Shown here: piece by piece, positions 19,511-39,156 of the stretch
Layout: every line of letters begins with the position of its first letter
Numbering within the stretch: position 1 is the first letter of the stretch
Origin: a virus
Taxonomy: Duplodnaviria > Heunggongvirae > Uroviricota > Caudoviricetes
Reading direction: 5' to 3' (one strand)
DNA length: 40,524 nucleotides
IMG/VR virus record: IMGVR_UViG_2627853794_000002
Location: 1 to 40,524 of that record
Position numbers and translations under genes: made by a program
The notes under the pieces: model-generated
Told to the model about the DNA's origin: nothing
What the model saw: the letters and a program-made list of their open reading frames with translations, nothing else
Databases searched by the model: none

Positions 19511-21268
19511 TTAAAGCGAACGGATGCCCACGCTGACCAGATGTTCAGACAGATCCAGCTCCGGTTCACCACCATTGACCAGCATCCGGCTCATTGCTGT
19601 AAACATCGCAACAGGGCCGTCGATTTTGGCTTCCAGCGTGGATTTATTCGGGAAGATATTGTCGTTTTTGTCCGGTTTTACCGTAACGTTAGACATCATC
19701 CAGTTCATGACCGGATGATTGCTGTGATGGAAACGCCCGGCATAGACCAGTGATTCCGTTTCCTTCATGGCCTCTGACAGATTACGAACCGTCTGCGGAA
19801 CCTCCACCAGCGGTATCCCTTCTTCAGCCAGTGCCAGGCTGAACTGCATCGCGCTCCACGGGTCAAATCCCAGTTCCCTGAGGTTTTCACCACCAATCCA
19901 TTCCAGTAAGTCACTTTTTATCTGAGCATGATCGATAACATCACCATCCGTCAGAATCAGCTTATCCATCTCCGCCCACTTCCGGTAAAGTTCTGCCTGC
20001 TGCCGCGAGCATCGTTCCAGCCGTCCTTCCGGAAGCCAGAATTTAAAATCGGCATGAACATGCCCGTTATCCGTTCGCCAGAGTTTTGCCGCCGCACAGA
20101 TATCAATCTTATGAGCAAGGTCAACGCCGACCCACATGGGATACGTTTTCAGCTCATGTCGTGGGGCAATGTATTCGCACTTCTCCCACTTAATCATGTC
20201 CATCCAGGCAGACTCTGCTGTTACCCACACATTCATGTGTTTGGTAAAAAAATTCACCCGCGCAGAGACCTGTTCTTTCGCTTTTTTCGCCAGGCGACGC
20301 AGATCATCCCAGCGTTTACAGATGCCCAGGCCGGGATTCGCTTTCTGCCAGACCGTTTCATCAAACGGATCATCTCCCTCATCGAGGGTGTAAATAATCG
20401 CAAAGTAGGAGTCGTCTTTTACAGCGCCCTCCACATCGCTGTTATAGCCACGCAATACCTTGATGGCGTAATCACGCTGCTCGTAACAAATCCCTTCCTT
20501 GTTAAACCCTGCCGTGGTGATACCAAATAACAGGGACTGCAGGCGAGCACCGGTTGCCGTTTCCAGAACGTCCCACACGTCGCGGGTTTTATGTGCATGC
20601 AGCTCATCAATAATGGCGCAGTGGATGTTCAGACCATCCAGGTTGTTTGCATCCGAGGAAAGCGGTTCAAATTTTGATGCGCTCTGCTCCTGGTAAATCG
20701 CCAGCTTGTTGAAATCAAACAACCGCCCGAGTGTCGACCGGGCTTTTCTGACCATATTTTTGGCGTCTTCAAACACAATTCTGGCCTGGTCACGCGTGGT
20801 GGCGGCTGAATACACCTCAGCACCGCCTTCACCATCTGCCCCCGTCATATACAGGCCGATACCCGATGACAGAGTTGATTTTGCGTTTTTACGGGCGACT
20901 TCGTTGTACGCCGTCCGGAACCGGCGCACCATCACCGGACGTCCGCTGCCATCGCTGCGCATGACAACTTCCCCGGTCTCTTCATTCACCAGCGGAATGA
21001 CAAAACCAAAAATATTAATGAGGATAAATACATGCCAGTCCATCAGTTCAATGGGCTGGCCTGCCAGCGCCCCTTTTACATGAGGCACAAATTTGTAGAA
21101 ATTCAGGATGTGCTGCGCACGGGGTTCACTGAAATAAATCCCCCGCTCTTCGCCGTACTTCAGATCATCAAGAAAACGCTGGCAGGCCAGGCGGACAAAT
21201 TCGCCAGCAACAATTTCTCCTGCAACAACACGTTCGGCGTAGCGGATCCCGTCAGCCACTTTTGCCAT
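19511..21268 (-). CDS. Terminase large subunit
   Basis: 585 aa; ATPase plus nuclease architecture; ATGA overlap with small subunit stop. Confidence 0.9.
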
Positions 21269-21750
21269 CAGTCTCTCGCTTTTAAAAGCTCCGCCAGCGG
21301 ATCAACATCATCCGGTCCGGCGATATTTACTTTAGCCCGGCTTGCCGGTGACATACCAAACTCTGCAAGCATTGCCCGGATCCGCTTCCAGGCATCCGCT
21401 TTCATTGCCGCCGCGGGGTGCGCCTTAATCAGTACATCACCGCTCTGCGTTTCCGTGCGGTAGGTATACCCCTCAACATCGAGTGTTTCGCAGTGATGCC
21501 GATATTCGGTGTAGGCTTCCACCAGCAACTCGAGCGCACGCGCATCAAGCTGAGAAATGATCCCTTCCGCATTCAGCTCTTCCGCCATTCGCCTGAACCA
21601 GTACTTCCCCTGAGCCCCTAAATGCTGCGGAATTTTAGGAAGACCTTTTTCATCCTTTTTAGCGGTTTTTTTGTGGTCTTTAACGGGGCGCTTTGAGGGG
21701 TTGCCTCGAATCAAATGCAGGCGTGGCGGGGTTTTCGGAGGTCCTGACAT
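21268..21750 (-). CDS. Terminase small subunit (P27 family-like)
   Basis: 160 aa basic N-terminus; directly upstream of large subunit. Confidence 0.7.
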   Translation of the reverse strand: MSGPPKTPPRLHLIRGNPSKRPVKDHKKTAKKDEKGLPKIPQHLGAQGKYWFRRMAEELNAEGIISQLDARALELLVEAYTEYRHHCETLDVEGYTYRTETQSGDVLIKAHPAAAMKADAWKRIRAMLAEFGMSPASRAKVNIAGPDDVDPLAELLKARD

Positions 21751-21897: not shown

Positions 21898-22248
21898 TCA
21901 ATTGATGCGTTCGCGCGCTGTTTTTGCTTTATGACAGGGCCAGCACAGACTCTGCAGGTTACTGTCTGCATCCGTGCCACCATGAGCTTTCGGAATGATG
22001 TGGTCCACAGTTCTGGCTTCAACGGCTCTCCCATTGCGCAGGCAGTTCTGACACAGATGATTATCACGCTTCAGTATGCGCGCACGTATGGCATCCCATT
22101 TCGAGCCATAGCCACGCTGGTGGCGGCTCAGTCCGCGTTGATGCTGTACCCATCCTTCGCCACGATGTTTATCGCAGTAACCAGAACTGTCTGTGGTTGT
22201 ACCTGCACATCCACGCTTACGGCAGGCGCGTGGGATTCGTGATGGCAT
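21898..22248 (-). CDS. HNH endonuclease (terminase-associated)
   Basis: 116 aa; Cys-rich HNH motif ...VDHIIPKAHGGTDADSNLQSLCWPCH...; immediately upstream of terminase genes. Confidence 0.85.
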   Translation of the reverse strand: MPSRIPRACRKRGCAGTTTDSSGYCDKHRGEGWVQHQRGLSRHQRGYGSKWDAIRARILKRDNHLCQNCLRNGRAVEARTVDHIIPKAHGGTDADSNLQSLCWPCHKAKTARERIN

Positions 22249-22290: not shown

Positions 22291-22755
22291 CTACTTAATG
22301 CACTGAGTGCGGATATACTCCTGTGCCCCTTCCAGTTGCATCTGCATCGTCATCAGCCGCTCTCTGAGGGTGAAATAATCCCGTTCAGCGGTGTCTGCCA
22401 GTCGGGGGCTGGTTGCATTATCCACGCCGGAGGCGGTGGTGGCTTCACGCACTGACTGACAGACTGCTTTGATGTGCAACCGACGACGACCAGCGGCAAC
22501 ATCAGCGCGCAGAGTTTCATTTTCAGCTTTCGCATTGGCTAATTCTCTCGAGTACTTTGCATCGAGCGCAGCAACATCACGCTGACGCTGCTGCATGTCA
22601 GCGATGGTGGCGATCGCCTGCTTCAGCTCACTGACTTTTTTATCACGCTGTTCTTTGTAGGCGATGGCGTTATCACGGTAATGATTGACCGCCCACGACA
22701 GGCAGACGATGATGCAAATAACCAGAGCATAAATAATCGCGGCGACTCTGCTCAC
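22291..22755 (-). CDS. rz: Rz inner-membrane spanin (i-spanin)
   Basis: N-terminal TM then coiled coil; near-identical to lambda Rz as recalled; GTG start overlapping endolysin stop. Confidence 0.85.
22353..22535 (-). CDS. rz1: Rz1 outer-membrane lipoprotein spanin, embedded in Rz in +1 frame
   Basis: 60 aa; lipobox ...VVVGC; proline-rich PPPPP; matches lambda Rz1 as recalled. Confidence 0.85.
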
Positions 22756-23285
22756 TGATCTATCCCCCAACAGGCTAATGCGCTTTCCTGGTCACGACGA
22801 ATAACCTGTCCATAGCAGTTATTTGAACGTATGCGGCAATCGCGCCCACCATCTTTTATCCACCAGCGAATCGCCTCGCATGCGCCCTTACGATCACCGG
22901 CATTCAGCCGCTTATAAAACGTCGACGGGAAACACTTACCGGGGCCAATGTTATAGGGACAGAATGATGCGATACCGGCTTTCTGTGGCTCGGTCAGTGG
23001 AACTTTTATATTGCGCTCCACCCATGCCAGCGCCTTATCACGCTCAATGGCATTAACCTGAGCGCATTTTTCCTTCGACAGTTTCATTCCTGGTACGACT
23101 GGCTTACCGTCCACCATCGTTGCACCGCGGCAGATGGTCCATATGCCGGAACCATCGCGGTATGCCGTAGTGTGGTTACCCTCTTTTTCATCCAGAAACT
23201 GGTCAAGTATTTGAGGAGCAGACGCGCCTGCAGCAATCAGCGCCAGAACAGCAGCTGACAGGCCGTATTTGATTTTTGCGCTCAT
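22752..23285 (-). CDS. SAR endolysin (T4-lysozyme-type glycoside hydrolase with N-terminal signal-anchor-release domain)
   Basis: 177 aa; hydrophobic Gly/Ala-rich N-terminus followed by lysozyme core; phage-21-type partner of pinholin. Confidence 0.85.
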
Positions 23286-23340
23286 GGATATTTATCAGGA
23301 TGCTACCAATGAAAGATACTGGAAAGCCAACTGCAAAAAG

Positions 23341-23655
23341 CTAACAACCCGTAATCGAGTTATCAGAACTGTTAATTTTTATGGTATACCGCGCCTCTGA
23401 ACAGGGGCGCGTTTGTGGCAACAGCTCGTCCCCTTCACATAACCCGGCAGCAACATCCAGGAAGACCTGTCTGATGCTCCTTCTGGCTGCTGCCTCATAA
23501 AACTCCAGCGCGGCACCTTCAACACGGTCCAGCGAGATGTCCAGGTCAAAAATTTCACCGTCAAAGCGTTTTTTGTCCCGTAATGCTACAGTTACCGCAA
23601 CTTTATTCTCAAAATTGCGGATCCCTTTCACAATCAGTTCATAGTTTTGAGTCAT
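23341..23655 (-). CDS. Hypothetical acidic protein inside lysis cassette
   Basis: 104 aa; ATG 4 nt after holin stop; no TM segment; not recognised. Confidence 0.5.
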   Translation of the reverse strand: MTQNYELIVKGIRNFENKVAVTVALRDKKRFDGEIFDLDISLDRVEGAALEFYEAAARRSIRQVFLDVAAGLCEGDELLPQTRPCSEARYTIKINSSDNSITGC

Positions 23656-23659
23656 TGAA

Positions 23660-23875
23660 TTACTCTCCCCGTGCAGCCTTACGCTTGTCTTCTCTGATTT
23701 TGAAGTACAGATTTGTCAGATAAGTCAGGAAGCCCAGAACCAGACTCCCCAGTACACCAATCGCAGCCCACTGTGACGGACTGACCTGATCAAGCCACTG
23801 TAAAAACCAGTAGCCAGCACTGCCTGCGGAGGTGCCGTAGGCAATGCCCGTTGAAATTTTGTCCATGGATTTCAT
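23660..23875 (-). CDS. Pinholin (phage 21 S21-like) with dual-start motif MKSM
   Basis: 71 aa; [59 protein letters not shown]... matches S21 as recalled. Confidence 0.85.
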
Positions 23876-24167: not shown

Positions 24168-24242
<75 letters not shown>

Positions 24243-24245
24243 ATA

Positions 24246-24321
<76 letters not shown>

Positions 24322-24323
24322 AC

Positions 24324-24400
24324 TGGACCGCCACCGGGGACTCGAACCTCGCACACTCAACTTAAAGGGTTGACGCTCTTTCCTGATGAGCTAGTGGCGG
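24324..24400 (-). tRNA. Atypical tRNA, anticodon UUU (Lys?) with C33
   Basis: 77 nt; perfect 7-bp acceptor stem CCGCCAC/GTGGCGG, anticodon stem TCAAC/GTTGA, loop CCUUUAA, T-loop TTCGAGT with one A-C mismatch in T stem; CCA encoded. Confidence 0.55.
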
Positions 24401-24401
24401 C

Positions 24402-24477
24402 TGGTGGCCCTTGCTGGATTTGAACCAGCGACCTGGCGATTATGAGTCGCTCGCTCTCACCACTGAGCTAAAGGGCC
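24402..24477 (-). tRNA. tRNA with anticodon CAU, most similar to tRNA-Ile2 (ileX/ileY-like) rather than elongator Met
   Basis: 76 nt; loop CUCAUAA; acceptor GGCCCTT/AAGGGCC; CCA encoded. Confidence 0.75.
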
Positions 24478-24580
24478 GGGCGCAGGATAATAACGTTACG
24501 AAATCAATGTTGCAAGCATTCAAAAATCCCCCTTATCTCCTCCACCAGCGCATTCACCATGTCTATCCGAGATAAGTGGC

Positions 24581-24606
24581 ACAAAAAACCCGCTTGTGGG
24601 CGGGTT
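24581..24606 (-). terminator. Intrinsic terminator (tR'-like) between late promoter and tRNA array
   Basis: Minus strand: stem aacccgc/gcgggtt followed by TTTTTTG. Confidence 0.55.
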
Positions 24607-24659
24607 TTGTTTGCTTTTGCCATCACGTACAAAATCGGCAAAATATCAGATTTGCATGA

Positions 24660-24688
24660 AATATATGCCTTTCAATCTACTTTTGCAA
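24660..24688 (-). promoter_or_regulatory. Candidate late promoter (pR'-like), sigma70 type
   Basis: Minus strand TTGCAA - 17 nt - TATATT overlapping 3' end of Q-like gene; ~50 nt upstream of terminator. Confidence 0.4.
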
Positions 24689-25361
24689 CACTTTGCTTTG
24701 AAAATGCCACCTTTTGTTTTGAACGTGTTCTCATTACAAACAATAAAGCCTCACTATCAAGTCGGTGAAAAATGTGTTTCATTGCAACCCAGTGACGAGT
24801 AAATGTTTTGGACCAGTTTTTAGTTGTCACTCCCGCCAGTAATGCCAGCTCCTGGTATTCATAACCTTCCCCACCAAAAAGTTCTGCTTTTACTGCCTGC
24901 GCCGCCAGCCAGATTAATTTTTTCAGGCGTTCCTGCGTTTTCCCTGCAATTTTTCTGGTACCGGATTGAGTATTAAATTCATTCCACGCCCACTGTGTTA
25001 TCGCGATCTGATATTCCCAACAAATACTCCCGCTGTAACACCACAACAACCAGGCTTTATGATGTTCTTCAAGAGACAGAACTGCCCGTCGCCATGATGA
25101 TGTCGAAAACTCAACCTGACTTACCAGAGCAATTGATGAGCCTTTCGCCAGTGATTGTTTTCCCGGTATCGGTGGACTATCCCGCGTTATCATTCTTCCA
25201 GTCACTTCATCGCGGTACCGGATTTTTTTACGCCTGTAACGCCCTGTATCAAACATGGCATTCTCCTGCCAGGCTTCAAGCTGGCCTTTCGTTGCTCCGC
25301 TCAAATCAGCGGTAGCCACAATGAGTTGCTCGCGGACATACTGTAAATATTGGGTATTCAT
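24672..25361 (-). CDS. Putative late-gene antiterminator (Q-like by position); family not recognised
   Basis: 229 aa; located between rusA and late promoter/terminator/lysis genes as Q is in lambdoid phages; no recognisable zinc finger. Confidence 0.4.
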   Translation of the reverse strand: MNTQYLQYVREQLIVATADLSGATKGQLEAWQENAMFDTGRYRRKKIRYRDEVTGRMITRDSPPIPGKQSLAKGSSIALVSQVEFSTSSWRRAVLSLEEHHKAWLLWCYSGSICWEYQIAITQWAWNEFNTQSGTRKIAGKTQERLKKLIWLAAQAVKAELFGGEGYEYQELALLAGVTTKNWSKTFTRHWVAMKHIFHRLDSEALLFVMRTRSKQKVAFSKQSVAKVD

Positions 25362-37704: not shown

Positions 37705-38026
37705 GGCCTGTCAGTTTCTCAAGATATCCAGACCTACCGCTACCAACTGGATACGAACAGGCCGCCTACAGGCAACACGCAAAGACCCCACTAAACCAAA
37801 ATCTCCTTACCTCACAACGCGACAAGCCTGCATTGCGGCGCTTCAGTCTCCGCTGCATACTATCAAGGTGAGCGCGGGTGATGGCATAACAGAGGAAAGA
37901 AAATGTCACTCTTCCGCAGAAGTGAAATATGGTACGCCAGTTTCACATTGCCGAACGGTAAAAGATTTAAACAGTCTCTTGGAACAAAGGACAAAAGGCA
38001 GGCGACAGAGCTCCATGACAAGCTAA
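37676..38026 (+). CDS. xis: Excisionase-like HTH protein (AlpA/Xis family); 3' end overlaps int
   Basis: [33 protein letters not shown]... HTH; ORF runs 124 nt into int in another frame, true C-terminus uncertain. Confidence 0.5.
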
Positions 38027-39066
38027 AGGCTGAAGCATGGCGGGTCAGCAAACTTGGTGAAATACCTGATATGACGTTTGAGGAAGCGTGTGTCAGGTGG
38101 CTCGAAGAGAAAGCACATAAGAAATCACTGGACGATGACAAAAGCCGGATCGGATTCTGGCTTCAACATTTCGCAGGGATGCAACTAAGAGACATCACTG
38201 AATCAAAAATTTATTCAGCGATGCAGAAAATGACAAACCGGCGTCATGAGGAAAACTGGAAACTCAGGGCAGAAGCATGCAGAAAAAAAGGGAAACCTGT
38301 TCCAGAATACACGCCAAAACCAGCGTCCGTTGCAACGAAGGCTACGCATCTTTCATTTATAAAGGCCCTGCTAAGAGCCGCAGAGCGTGAATGGAAAATG
38401 CTGGATAAGGCACCAATTATTAAAGTGCCTCAACCAAAGAATAAACGGATCCGCTGGCTGGAGCCCCATGAAGCACAAAGGCTGATTGATGAATGTCCGG
38501 AGCCATTAAAGTCTGTTGTTGAATTTGCACTGGCAACAGGCTTAAGACGCTCGAACATCATCAACCTTGAATGGCAACAAATAGATATGCAGCGCCGGGT
38601 GGCATGGATAAACCCGGAAGAGAGTAAATCAAACCGCGCAATTGGCGTTGCGCTGAATGATACTGCATGTCGCGTATTGAAAAAACAAATCGGGAATCAT
38701 CACCGTTGGGTATTTGTGTACAAGGAAAGCTGTACCAAACCAGACGGAACGAAAGCGCCAACAGTAAGGAAGATGCGGTATGACGCAAACACAGCCTGGA
38801 AAGCGGCGCTGAGACGGGCTGGTATTGATGATTTCAGATTTCACGACTTGAGACACACCTGGGCAAGTTGGCTGGTTCAAGCCGGAGTCCCGTTGTCAGT
38901 GTTACAGGAAATGGGGGGTTGGGAGTCTATCGAAATGGTTCGTCGATATGCTCACCTTGCACCTAATCACCTTACCGAACACGCACGGCAAATAGACTCG
39001 ATCCTGAATCCATCGGTCCCAAATTTGTCCCAGTCAAAAAATAAGGAAGGTACTAATGATGTGTAA
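37903..39066 (+). CDS. int: Tyrosine integrase (lambdoid prophage integrase)
   Basis: 387 aa; N-terminal [14 protein letters not shown]...; catalytic region ...[39 protein letters not shown]; stop 14 nt from tRNA 3' end. Confidence 0.9.
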
Positions 39067-39080
39067 CTTATTGATTTAAA

Positions 39081-39156
39081 TGGTGCCGATAATAGGAGTC
39101 GAACCTACGACCTTCGCATTACGAATGCGCTGCTCTACCAACTGAGCTATATCGGC
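39081..39156 (-). tRNA. thrW: tRNA-Thr (anticodon CGU), intact; prophage attachment site
   Basis: 76 nt; minus strand GCCGATATAGCTCAGTTGGTAGAGCAGCGCATTCGTAATGCGAAGGTCGTAGGTTCGACTCCTATTATCGGCACCA; adjacent to proA as in E. coli. Confidence 0.9.

Follow-up and report, generated by a model that had tools for sequence, protein, structure and literature searches.

A YdfR/DUF1327-family gene between the pinholin and endolysin genes of a lambdoid phage, a probable accessory gene of the late operon

Introduction

In a stretch of tailed-phage DNA of 40,524 nucleotides (Caudoviricetes; IMG/VR record IMGVR_UViG_2627853794_000002, positions 1 to 40,524; hereafter the window), the genes for a pinholin and for an endolysin with a SAR-like N-terminus are separated by an open reading frame for a soluble protein of 104 amino acids. 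The first-pass annotation took this protein to be an unrecognised intruder in an otherwise canonical cassette of the phage 21 type, in which the endolysin gene would normally follow the holin gene directly, and offered two functions for it: a regulator of lysis timing, or a moron exploiting late expression. What kind of protein is encoded at this junction, how unusual is its presence there, and is it more likely to serve lysis or merely to travel with the late genes? The gene was compared with its counterparts in complete bacterial genomes and phage collections, and the protein was examined for family membership, modular structure, selection and fold.

The lysis cassette and late operon of the window

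The late operon of the window is encoded on a single strand in the order Q, pR'-like promoter, tR' hairpin, tRNAs, S, ydfR-like gene, R and Rz (Table 1). The ORF list and the sequence both confirm an open reading frame of 104 codons for amino acids that opens 4 nt past the holin stop, as the first-pass annotation had it; the four bases between the holin TAA (23662-23660) and the ATG are TTCA. The protein was rightly said to lack a membrane segment: the highest Kyte-Doolittle score of any 19-aa window is 0.84, whereas the holin reaches 1.72 and the endolysin N-terminus (residues 9-27) 1.78. It is also acidic, though only mildly so (pI 4.97; 17 D+E versus 14 K+R). The G+C content of the gene is 47.6%, compared with 50.5-52.1% in its neighbours, and its composition is not deviant. 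A Shine-Dalgarno-like run, GGGGAGAG, appears to be placed to serve as the ribosome-binding site of the open reading frame.

The description of the cassette as canonical and S21-type applies to some of its parts. The holin is 98.6% identical to S of phage 21 and its N-terminus, MKSMDK, has the dual start of a class II holin; Rz and Rz1 are both recognized by Pfam. The endolysin, in contrast, is of the rrrQ/933W-R type and not of the R21 type: its identity with R21 is only 34%, and with R of VT2-Sakai 92%, and its start, 374 nt past the holin stop, does not overlap the holin gene as the start of an R21-type gene does. The endolysin N-terminus is Gly/Ala-rich and weakly hydrophobic, a SAR-like composition that is consistent with SAR export.

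Table 1. Features of the lysis cassette and of the late operon upstream of it in the window.
Feature	Coordinates	Strand	Remarks
Upstream late-operon context	24168..25361	minus	
Q antiterminator	24672-25361	minus	
pR'-like promoter	24688-24660	minus	
tR'-like hairpin	24585-24608	minus	
Four tRNA genes	24168-24477	minus	
Class II (S21-type) pinholin	23660..23875	minus	71 aa; MKSM dual start; PF04971, E 1.4e-35
Shine-Dalgarno-like run GGGGAGAG	23663..23670	minus	within the final holin codons; followed by TAA, TTCA and ATG
YdfR/DUF1327-family gene	23341..23655	minus	104 aa; ATG 23655-23653, TAG stop 23343-23341; ORF list, Pfam, PHROG
Core module A, aa 1-75	23431..23655	minus	conserved family part; predicted antiparallel strands 5-14, 18-27 and 34-43, helix 50-71
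Tail module B, aa 76-104	23341..23430	minus	ends ..DELLPQTRPCSEARYTIKINSSDNSITGC and stop; variable; pLDDT < 50
Spacer between YdfR-family gene and endolysin gene	23286..23340	minus	55 nt
Lysozyme-family endolysin (rrrQ/933W-R type)	22752..23285	minus	177 aa; PF00959, E 1.7e-24; rrrQ lysozyme in AH25
Rz i-spanin	22291..22770	minus	RefSeq start = 22755; PF03245, E 2.4e-49
Rz1 o-spanin	22353..22535	minus	embedded in Rz, +1 frame; PF06085, E 6.4e-20

Family identity, prevalence and distribution

The protein proved to be recognisable. It matches Pfam DUF1327 (PF07041) at 131.6 bits, far above the curated gathering cut-off of 25 (E 1.2e-38; residues 1-96 on positions 1-90 of the 93 in the profile), and PHROG 2735 over its full length (E 1.8e-54), so that its membership in the YdfR/DUF1327 family is, from sequence similarity, virtually certain. 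Homologues carry the name 'YdfR family protein' in RefSeq and in many phage records, among the latter mEp460, BP-4795 and Stx2 phage 86, and annotated examples of the cassette are found in mEp460, BP-4795, Tritos, Stx1_699 and AH25. A prophage of E. coli AH25 has a copy that is 100% identical at the DNA level (WP_040234544.1, 'DUF1327 domain-containing protein'), with the gene order of the window: Q, four tRNAs, class II holin, YdfR-family gene, rrrQ lysozyme, lysis protein, HNH and terminase. The family is therefore already catalogued, the identical protein is already in RefSeq, and the arrangement is common rather than anomalous. The match does not amount to clear homology with a known lysis accessory protein, an outcome that the first-pass annotation had named as counting against its proposal, because the YdfR/DUF1327 family has no established function. 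In the literature, 'DUF1327' is mentioned only in passing, by a single paper, and E. coli 'ydfR' appears in lists, with the exception of PMC13232886. The 104-aa protein matched no NCBIfam model, and sequence searches found no relative of solved structure at E <= 1. Hits to giant adhesin-like proteins (P0146 and P0152; E 1e-10 to 1e-8), which are Ig/cadherin/G2F repeat proteins, were taken as compositional beta-strand matches and set aside.

The YdfR family is present in 4351 of the 5426 complete E. coli genomes (about 80%), where it occupies 8613 places; S21-type holin genes occupy 16886 places in the same genomes. Approximately every second S21-type holin therefore has a YdfR-family gene after it, a ratio that compares two blastn searches of somewhat different sensitivity. 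An endolysin gene directly after the holin gene is thus not the norm in E. coli, contrary to what had been supposed, since about half of the S21-type holin loci carry a YdfR-family gene. The phage collection contains 101 records with a YdfR-family gene and 438 with an S21-type holin, and the carriers include Shiga-toxin phages (H-19B, BP-4795, Stx1a and Stx2c phages). With few exceptions the family is restricted to Escherichia and Shigella. When 1.84 billion representative proteins were scanned exhaustively with phmmer, only 58 YdfR-family clusters emerged. In a scan of one genome per species, the family turned up in E. coli, E. albertii, E. ruysiae, Shigella and a pair of probably mis-binned metagenome-assembled genomes (MAGs) but nowhere else; profile searches brought to light a small number of further proteins, from Salmonella, Yersinia and Cronobacter.

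Conserved core and variable tail

The invariant and near-invariant columns of the family alignment lie in core module A. This module is equivalent to the 72-aa stand-alone proteins of Yersinia and Cronobacter and to the fragment of E. coli K-12 YdfR that comprises residues 1-72, and AlphaFold2, given an alignment of 25 sequences, predicts it confidently (pLDDT 81-94 over residues 1-70). Long forms of the family continue as ITGSLKTPP..SEKDDIES.. (modules C and D) where the window protein ends with ITGC and a stop codon; because this stop falls exactly where the long forms continue, the window protein, composed of modules A and B, is a truncated version.

The family as a whole is combinatorial. 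Core module A falls into three allele groups; of module B there are two alleles, ending in ..RYTIKINSSDNSITG (the window) or ..VWITYKGKLPGRITG; and a helical module C, itself with two alleles, is optional; still longer forms are of 206-287 aa. The DNA of the gene is correspondingly a mosaic, with breakpoints at approximately nt 206, nt 252 and nt 336-359. There are many length variants, and frameshifted versions and internal duplications are also seen in the family, but the core is retained through every deletion and mosaic variant. For the ratio of nonsynonymous to synonymous substitution (dN/dS) in the core, comparisons between allele groups whose dS is not saturated give 0.20-0.29, and those within the Stx-type allele group 0.4-2; these values indicate a real protein under moderate constraint that is sometimes relaxed. 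With the DUF1327 match and hundreds of homologues in addition to the core dN/dS, the open reading frame is more than a chance reading frame.

The first-pass annotation had recommended homology and structure searches, of which the former gave the family and the latter gave no convincing fold match. When the confident core model was compared by Foldseek with the PDB and BFVD, nothing was found below E 1e-2, and none of the proteins picked out by fold-search score is convincing (Rv1738, 5.4; phiKZ Dip, 4.2; a T3SS chaperone, 4.2). The predicted beta3-alpha unit is too generic for a fold assignment. The model of a long form of 180 aa, in which two long helices and a hairpin of low confidence are added to the core, is uninformative (pTM 0.38). 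A double-stranded RNA-binding domain (dsRBD; alpha-beta-beta-beta-alpha, with KKxAK where its last helix begins) was considered on account of the motifs RRSIR in the window protein and KKQAK in the Stx alleles, and rejected: there was no dsrm hit at E <= 10, the model is without the N-terminal helix alpha1, and a KKxAK-like motif is not a family feature, because members from Yersinia and Cronobacter have INKAK, VEKAK or INKVV instead.

Comparison of holin-endolysin junctions

The S-R junction was surveyed in about 93 Escherichia loci that carry a YdfR-family gene. In nearly all of them the ATG is 4 nt past the holin stop, with the start codon and Shine-Dalgarno sequence intact, and the next gene downstream always encodes the 177-aa type of endolysin and never the R21 type. 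The window has this typical Escherichia setting of a class II holin, the YdfR-family gene and a 177-aa lysozyme. The distance from the YdfR-family gene to the endolysin gene varies among loci, being -4, 50, 55, 321, 343, 370, 452 or 511 nt.

Phage 21 resembles the window in its nearly identical dual-start holin, in its Rz gene with embedded Rz1 and in a late operon that lies behind Q, pR' and tRNA genes; it differs in that the S stop overlaps the R start with nothing between them, and in that R21 is a protein of 165 aa, only distantly similar to the endolysin of the window. Phage 434 likewise has S overlapping R21 without an intervening gene. The closest comparison is offered by the VT2-Sakai/933W-type cassette, in which the order is S, 4 nt, 177-aa R, ant and Rz. 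VT2-Sakai has the endolysin type of the window and the same GGGGAGAG-TAA-4 nt-ATG junction past the holin, whereas the ATG in that slot starts the endolysin and the YdfR-family gene is absent. Because the VT2-Sakai endolysin uses an identical junction, the YdfR-family gene takes the endolysin's slot and ribosome-binding site, and the two cassettes constitute a presence/absence pair that marks the YdfR-family gene as an insert or a deletion.

The namesake of the family, YdfR of E. coli K-12 (P76160), is encoded in the Qin prophage (essQ-ydfR-rrrQ-rzpQ) and also matches DUF1327. In loci of the K-12 type (L004 and L009), the gene lies between a class II holin and a 177-aa lysozyme with the same 4-nt junction as in the window. 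The K-12-type protein is 66% identical to the window protein overall and nearly identical to it over residues 1-69, but past residue ~70 the tails are unrelated (EKLSEKVESYLQHQYSFKIENPANKH.. versus GLCEGDELLPQTRPCSEARYTIKINSS..). The endolysin ATG overlaps the ydfR stop in the K-12 type (ATGA), which would imply that translation of the endolysin is coupled to that of ydfR, whereas the window has a spacer at this point. One identical core was found with nine different holin sequences, and no co-inheritance of YdfR-family alleles with holin alleles, which would be a sign of physical partnership, was found.

Relatives at other genomic positions

The most divergent members of the family (33-49% identity; 71-99 aa) consist essentially of module A, and none of them is located between S and R. 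In Yersinia enterocolitica, one and the same 72-aa protein has its gene between tail genes I and J on one contig but between M and L on other contigs; other relatives are found between I and J, between M and L, or just past Rz (Cronobacter and an unassigned contig). All of these distant relatives are on the late-gene strand, and each is followed by a hairpin and then by a gene on the opposite strand (L097-L106). As far as gene neighbourhoods can tell, the YdfR family behaves as a portable late-operon cassette and not as a part tied to the holin or to the endolysin.

A late-expressed accessory gene

The explanation considered best overall, and modestly probable when taken as a whole, is that the YdfR-family gene is an accessory late gene whose core may act on RNase E or RNA. 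The product would be a small soluble cytoplasmic protein with a predicted beta-beta-beta-alpha core of 72-75 aa and a short, poorly ordered tail. To judge from the layout, it would be transcribed only within the Q-dependent late (pR') transcript and translated from the Shine-Dalgarno sequence in the final pinholin codons, the slot that is used by the endolysin in cassettes without a YdfR-family gene; the gene is on the late-gene strand and should therefore be expressed with the lytic late genes and not from the prophage. The comparisons suggest an accessory, moron-like gene that is not a working part of the pinholin/SAR-endolysin/spanin machinery. It would occupy several late-operon positions in enterobacterial lambdoid phages and be fixed at the S-R junction in Escherichia, where repeated shuffling and trimming would always have kept the core. 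That the gene is accessory rather than a component of lysis is likely, because the cassettes of close relatives work without a YdfR-family gene, one core is paired with nine holins, relatives are located in tail modules, and the tail of the protein is shuffled and truncated.

Known morons of lambdoid phages include bor and lom of lambda and those of HK97 and HK022. As reportedly defined by Juhala and colleagues in 2000, a moron has its own promoter and terminator and an atypical base composition. The YdfR-family gene resembles the lambdoid morons as a small extra gene that is present or absent between genes adjacent in related phages, at several sites of the late operon; it differs from them in that it has neither a promoter and terminator of its own nor a deviant composition. 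It is not a textbook moron, because the 4 nt that separate it from the holin stop are too few to contain a promoter. The proposed moron exploiting late expression is thus favoured in spirit, given the presence/absence pattern and the other late positions, though not in the strict sense of the term. A terminator-like hairpin at 23366-23341 is within chance (2 found versus 2.8 expected).

The molecular activity of the core most likely consists, by analogy with the K-12 homologue, of binding to the catalytic N-terminal half of RNase E and/or to RNA in the cytoplasm late in infection, and its effect would be on RNA decay rather than on membrane or wall events. K-12 YdfR, and also its residues 1-72 alone, gave a two-hybrid signal with RNase E 1-597 (Gopel et al. 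2026; PMC13232886), and a full-length fusion with a short linker was positive with one RNase E construct only (PMC13232886). RNase E 1-598 co-eluted with Strep-YdfR from lysates, and the Strep-YdfR eluate contained much DNase-resistant nucleic acid (PMC13232886). This co-purification could be RNA-bridged, because the lysates were without nuclease treatment (PMC13232886). Overproduction of YdfR changed few transcripts and caused no growth or envelope phenotype in K-12 (PMC13232886). The RNase E and RNA binding data all concern the K-12 protein. Transferred from a homologue and biochemically preliminary, they still provide the best available molecular lead; that the window protein itself acts on RNase E or RNA is a tentative proposition and somewhat doubtful. 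The net acidic character of the protein is unusual for an RNA binder.

Several phages encode modulators of RNase E (T4 Srd, T7 gp0.7 and phiKZ Dip), of which Srd contacts the N-terminal catalytic half. If the K-12 data can be transferred, the YdfR family resembles them in supplying a small phage protein that contacts the host RNase E; it has no sequence relation to them, and the YdfR-family gene is late whereas the modulators are early. A more specific proposal, which is unlikely, is that the 72-aa core is a new phage-encoded adaptor, a minimal beta3-alpha module for RNA binding that would attach to the catalytic half of RNase E late in infection and would divert or prevent the cleavage of particular transcripts, so that, for example, the long late mRNA would be protected or host messages would be shut down. 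Such an adaptor, if real, would travel as a portable cassette in lambdoid phages of Escherichia, Yersinia and Cronobacter and would be carried by some 80% of E. coli genomes.

The gene deserves attention because it is present in approximately four fifths of E. coli genomes and in many Shiga-toxin phages, and adjoins the genes for release of phage and toxin. Were the RNase E/RNA activity real, lambdoid biology would gain a widespread host-RNA factor that acts late. The comparative picture of a portable core, a shuffled and truncated tail, and tail-module relatives paired with an opposite-strand gene narrows experiments to a domain of 72 residues.

Alternative explanations

Of the explanations that compete with an accessory late gene, the one that survives best, though distinctly unlikely, is a cytoplasmic factor in lysis timing that would bind the basic C-terminal tail of the pinholin in an antiholin-like manner, or would chaperone or retain the SAR endolysin. 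Such a factor would be produced at a constant ratio to the holin, since its ribosome-binding site lies in the 3' end of the holin gene, and a role of this kind keeps some probability because in Escherichia the gene is found nowhere but at the S-R junction and is invariably accompanied by one endolysin type. The position directly past the holin stop is invariant in the ~93 Escherichia loci, and a SAR-like endolysin of 177 aa, never one of the R21 type, comes next; this constancy, which a lysis-linked role would also explain, speaks against the accessory reading. The mildly acidic YdfR-family protein would also face a holin tail that is basic and almost invariant. Small soluble regulators beside holins have precedents in the antiholin-like proteins P1 LydB and T4 RIII, and Gp1 of mycobacteriophage Ms6 is an endolysin chaperone. 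The YdfR-family protein is likewise small, soluble, mildly acidic and encoded beside a holin or endolysin, but related phages have cassettes that work without the gene and relatives of the gene lie away from lysis genes; similarity to soluble lysis regulators was not found in the general libraries (Pfam, NCBIfam, PHROGs, PDB and BFVD). Holins and endolysins nearly identical to those of the window operate without a YdfR-family gene, S21-type holins encode their own antiholin by way of the dual start, which is present in the window, and neither the lack of allele-specific holin pairing nor the relatives in tail modules with no lysis genes nearby would be expected of a lysis-timing factor. Overproduction in K-12, with no effect on growth or envelope (PMC13232886), also argues against it.

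The Keio ydfR mutant was among the hits of a screen for envelope leakiness and integrity (Paradis-Bleau 2014), an observation that would fit lysis timing better than an accessory gene. A polar effect is suspected, because the resistance cassette of the mutant lies directly upstream of the endolysin gene rrrQ, and the phenotype could be due to the promoter of that cassette acting on rrrQ. If lysis is indeed tuned by the YdfR family, the gene bears on the timing of toxin release.

Three further readings are lesser alternatives. The insertion might act in cis: it would capture the strong ribosome-binding site in the final holin codons and displace the endolysin gene by 370 nt to a start without a Shine-Dalgarno sequence, so that endolysin translation is lowered or re-timed and the protein itself matters little. 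The VT2-Sakai endolysin does use the GGGGAGAG-TAA-4 nt-ATG slot directly, while cassettes that contain DUF1327 have no obvious Shine-Dalgarno sequence before the endolysin ATG and conserve in that place the last 14 nt of the spacer, CCTGATAAATATCC (23299-23286 in the window); the overlap of the endolysin ATG with the ydfR stop in the K-12 type, with the coupling that it implies, is a further point in favour of this possibility. An effect in cis is nevertheless improbable in view of the purifying selection on the core at the protein level (dN/dS 0.2-0.3), the survival of the core in all deletion and mosaic variants, and the existence of the core as a stand-alone gene far from endolysins. The spacer RNA is also without significant structure, its fold being no better than those of shuffled sequences (z -1.08), and an Rfam search of the window returned tRNAs only, with no structured RNA element in or after the open reading frame.

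The second of these alternatives, that the gene belongs to a two-gene conflict module (for immunity, exclusion or counter-defence) whose other gene would have been lost from the Escherichia copies, has an equally small probability. It derives from the 72-aa gene of Yersinia and Cronobacter, which always occurs with the hairpin and the opposite-strand gene (L097-L106), and from the presence of one such module at different tail positions. The partner usually encodes a protein of ~99 aa (PHROG 25324) and has its own upstream region. In addition, a segment of ~78 nt before the E. coli endolysin gene has a homologue in Cronobacter, in the DNA that lies upstream of the partner gene, and because of this homology the Escherichia insert and the Yersinia/Cronobacter module share ancestry. 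However, the PHROG 25324 partner was found neither in the window nor in any of the E. coli loci examined, and none of the PADLOC defence models matched the window protein, the long forms or the partner proteins of Yersinia and Cronobacter. The partners also vary by locus, being 99-aa, 74-aa and 186-aa proteins of different PHROGs, so that their pairing with the 72-aa gene might amount to no more than the common use of an insertion hotspot beside a bidirectional terminator.

Least probable is a decaying remnant without function, kept since deletions that reach the end of the holin gene or the start of the endolysin gene would be lethal to the phage: the tail is truncated relative to longer forms, the family has many length variants as well as frameshifted and internally duplicated versions, the Stx-type allele group has an internal dN/dS of 0.4-2 and overexpression had little effect (PMC13232886), but dN/dS is 0.2-0.3 between the major allele groups, the start and Shine-Dalgarno sequence are intact in nearly all loci, the confidently folded core is present in every variant, and the family is held by 80% of complete E. 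coli genomes.

DNA upstream of the endolysin gene

In the cassettes that contain a DUF1327 gene, the sequence CCTGATAAATATCC is conserved immediately 5' of the endolysin start codon (positions 23286-23299 of the window, and the compared loci L002, L003, L089 and L090), and no obvious Shine-Dalgarno sequence was found in it ahead of the ATG. A segment of approximately 78 nt, which contains the inverted repeats CGCCAGTG..CACTGGCG and CCAGGG..CCCTG, also lies upstream of the endolysin gene in most DUF1327-containing loci. The K-12-type loci differ in that the ydfR stop codon is overlapped by the endolysin ATG. Among the envelope-leaky, CPRG-positive mutants listed in supplementary files 2 and 5 of PMC3879167 is the Keio ydfR deletion mutant of K-12. 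In this mutant the deletion cassette is located immediately 5' of rrrQ, the endolysin gene of the prophage, so this phenotype could be explained by polar activation of that gene.

DUF1327 modules in Yersinia, Cronobacter and unassigned contigs, and unusual matches

In Yersinia, Cronobacter and unassigned contigs, a 72-aa DUF1327 gene, a GC-rich hairpin and a gene on the opposite strand form a compact module, of which the location varies: between tail genes I and J, between tail genes M and L, or after Rz. The opposite-strand partner usually encodes a protein of approximately 99 aa (PHROG 25324), and the Cronobacter DNA upstream of it (L104:1810-1900) is homologous to the 78-nt pre-endolysin segment.

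Several database proteins depart from the usual DUF1327 architecture. Most of the conserved core is tandemly duplicated within the E. coli proteins P0167 and P0168, each having two copies of ..NYPDKITVTVALEIGGYPSLLLPDVAISLDRTEGATLEFYEAEAKKQAKQFFMDV.., and P0002, P0005 and P0056 are annotated as holin-DUF1327 fusions; all of these entries may be real variants, or they may have arisen through errors of assembly or annotation. Two giant repeat proteins, P0146 (3128 aa) and P0152 (2356 aa), with G2F, Big_9 and cadherin-like repeat domains, matched the DUF1327 query (E values of 1e-10 to 5e-8) through six to eight repeats each. This similarity is probably a compositional match of beta strands; alternatively, a segment of the Ig-like repeat could resemble the sheet of the DUF1327 core.

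Other genes in the window

Four tRNA genes are clustered between the holin gene and a pR'/tR'-like region (24585-24688), the site at which tRNAs and stx genes occur in Stx phages; the tRNA with anticodon CAT is tRNA-Ile according to RefSeq. On the other side of the cassette, Rz is followed directly by an HNH endonuclease gene and then by a P27-family small terminase gene, a pair typical of cos-type HK97-like packaging modules. The 387-aa ORF is probably an integrase gene and the adjoining tRNA-Thr gene its attachment site (together 37903-39156); one end of the prophage occupying most of the window would then lie here.

Coordinates of features in the window and of DUF1327 modules in compared loci (L numbers)
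Feature	Location	Strand	Remarks
Four-gene tRNA cluster	window 24168-24477	minus	anticodons CAT, TTT, TGT, TCC
387-aa ORF	window 37903-39066	plus	putative integrase
tRNA-Thr(CGT) gene	window 39081-39156		adjoins 387-aa ORF
HNH endonuclease gene	window 21898-22248	minus	RefSeq name from identical prophage of E. coli AH25
P27-family small terminase gene	window 21268-21750	minus	RefSeq name from identical prophage of E. coli AH25
DUF1327 module	L101:3501-4222		
DUF1327 module	L102:3501-4222		
DUF1327 module	L104:1226-1930		
DUF1327 module	L098:449-1001		
DUF1327 module	L097:4001-4506
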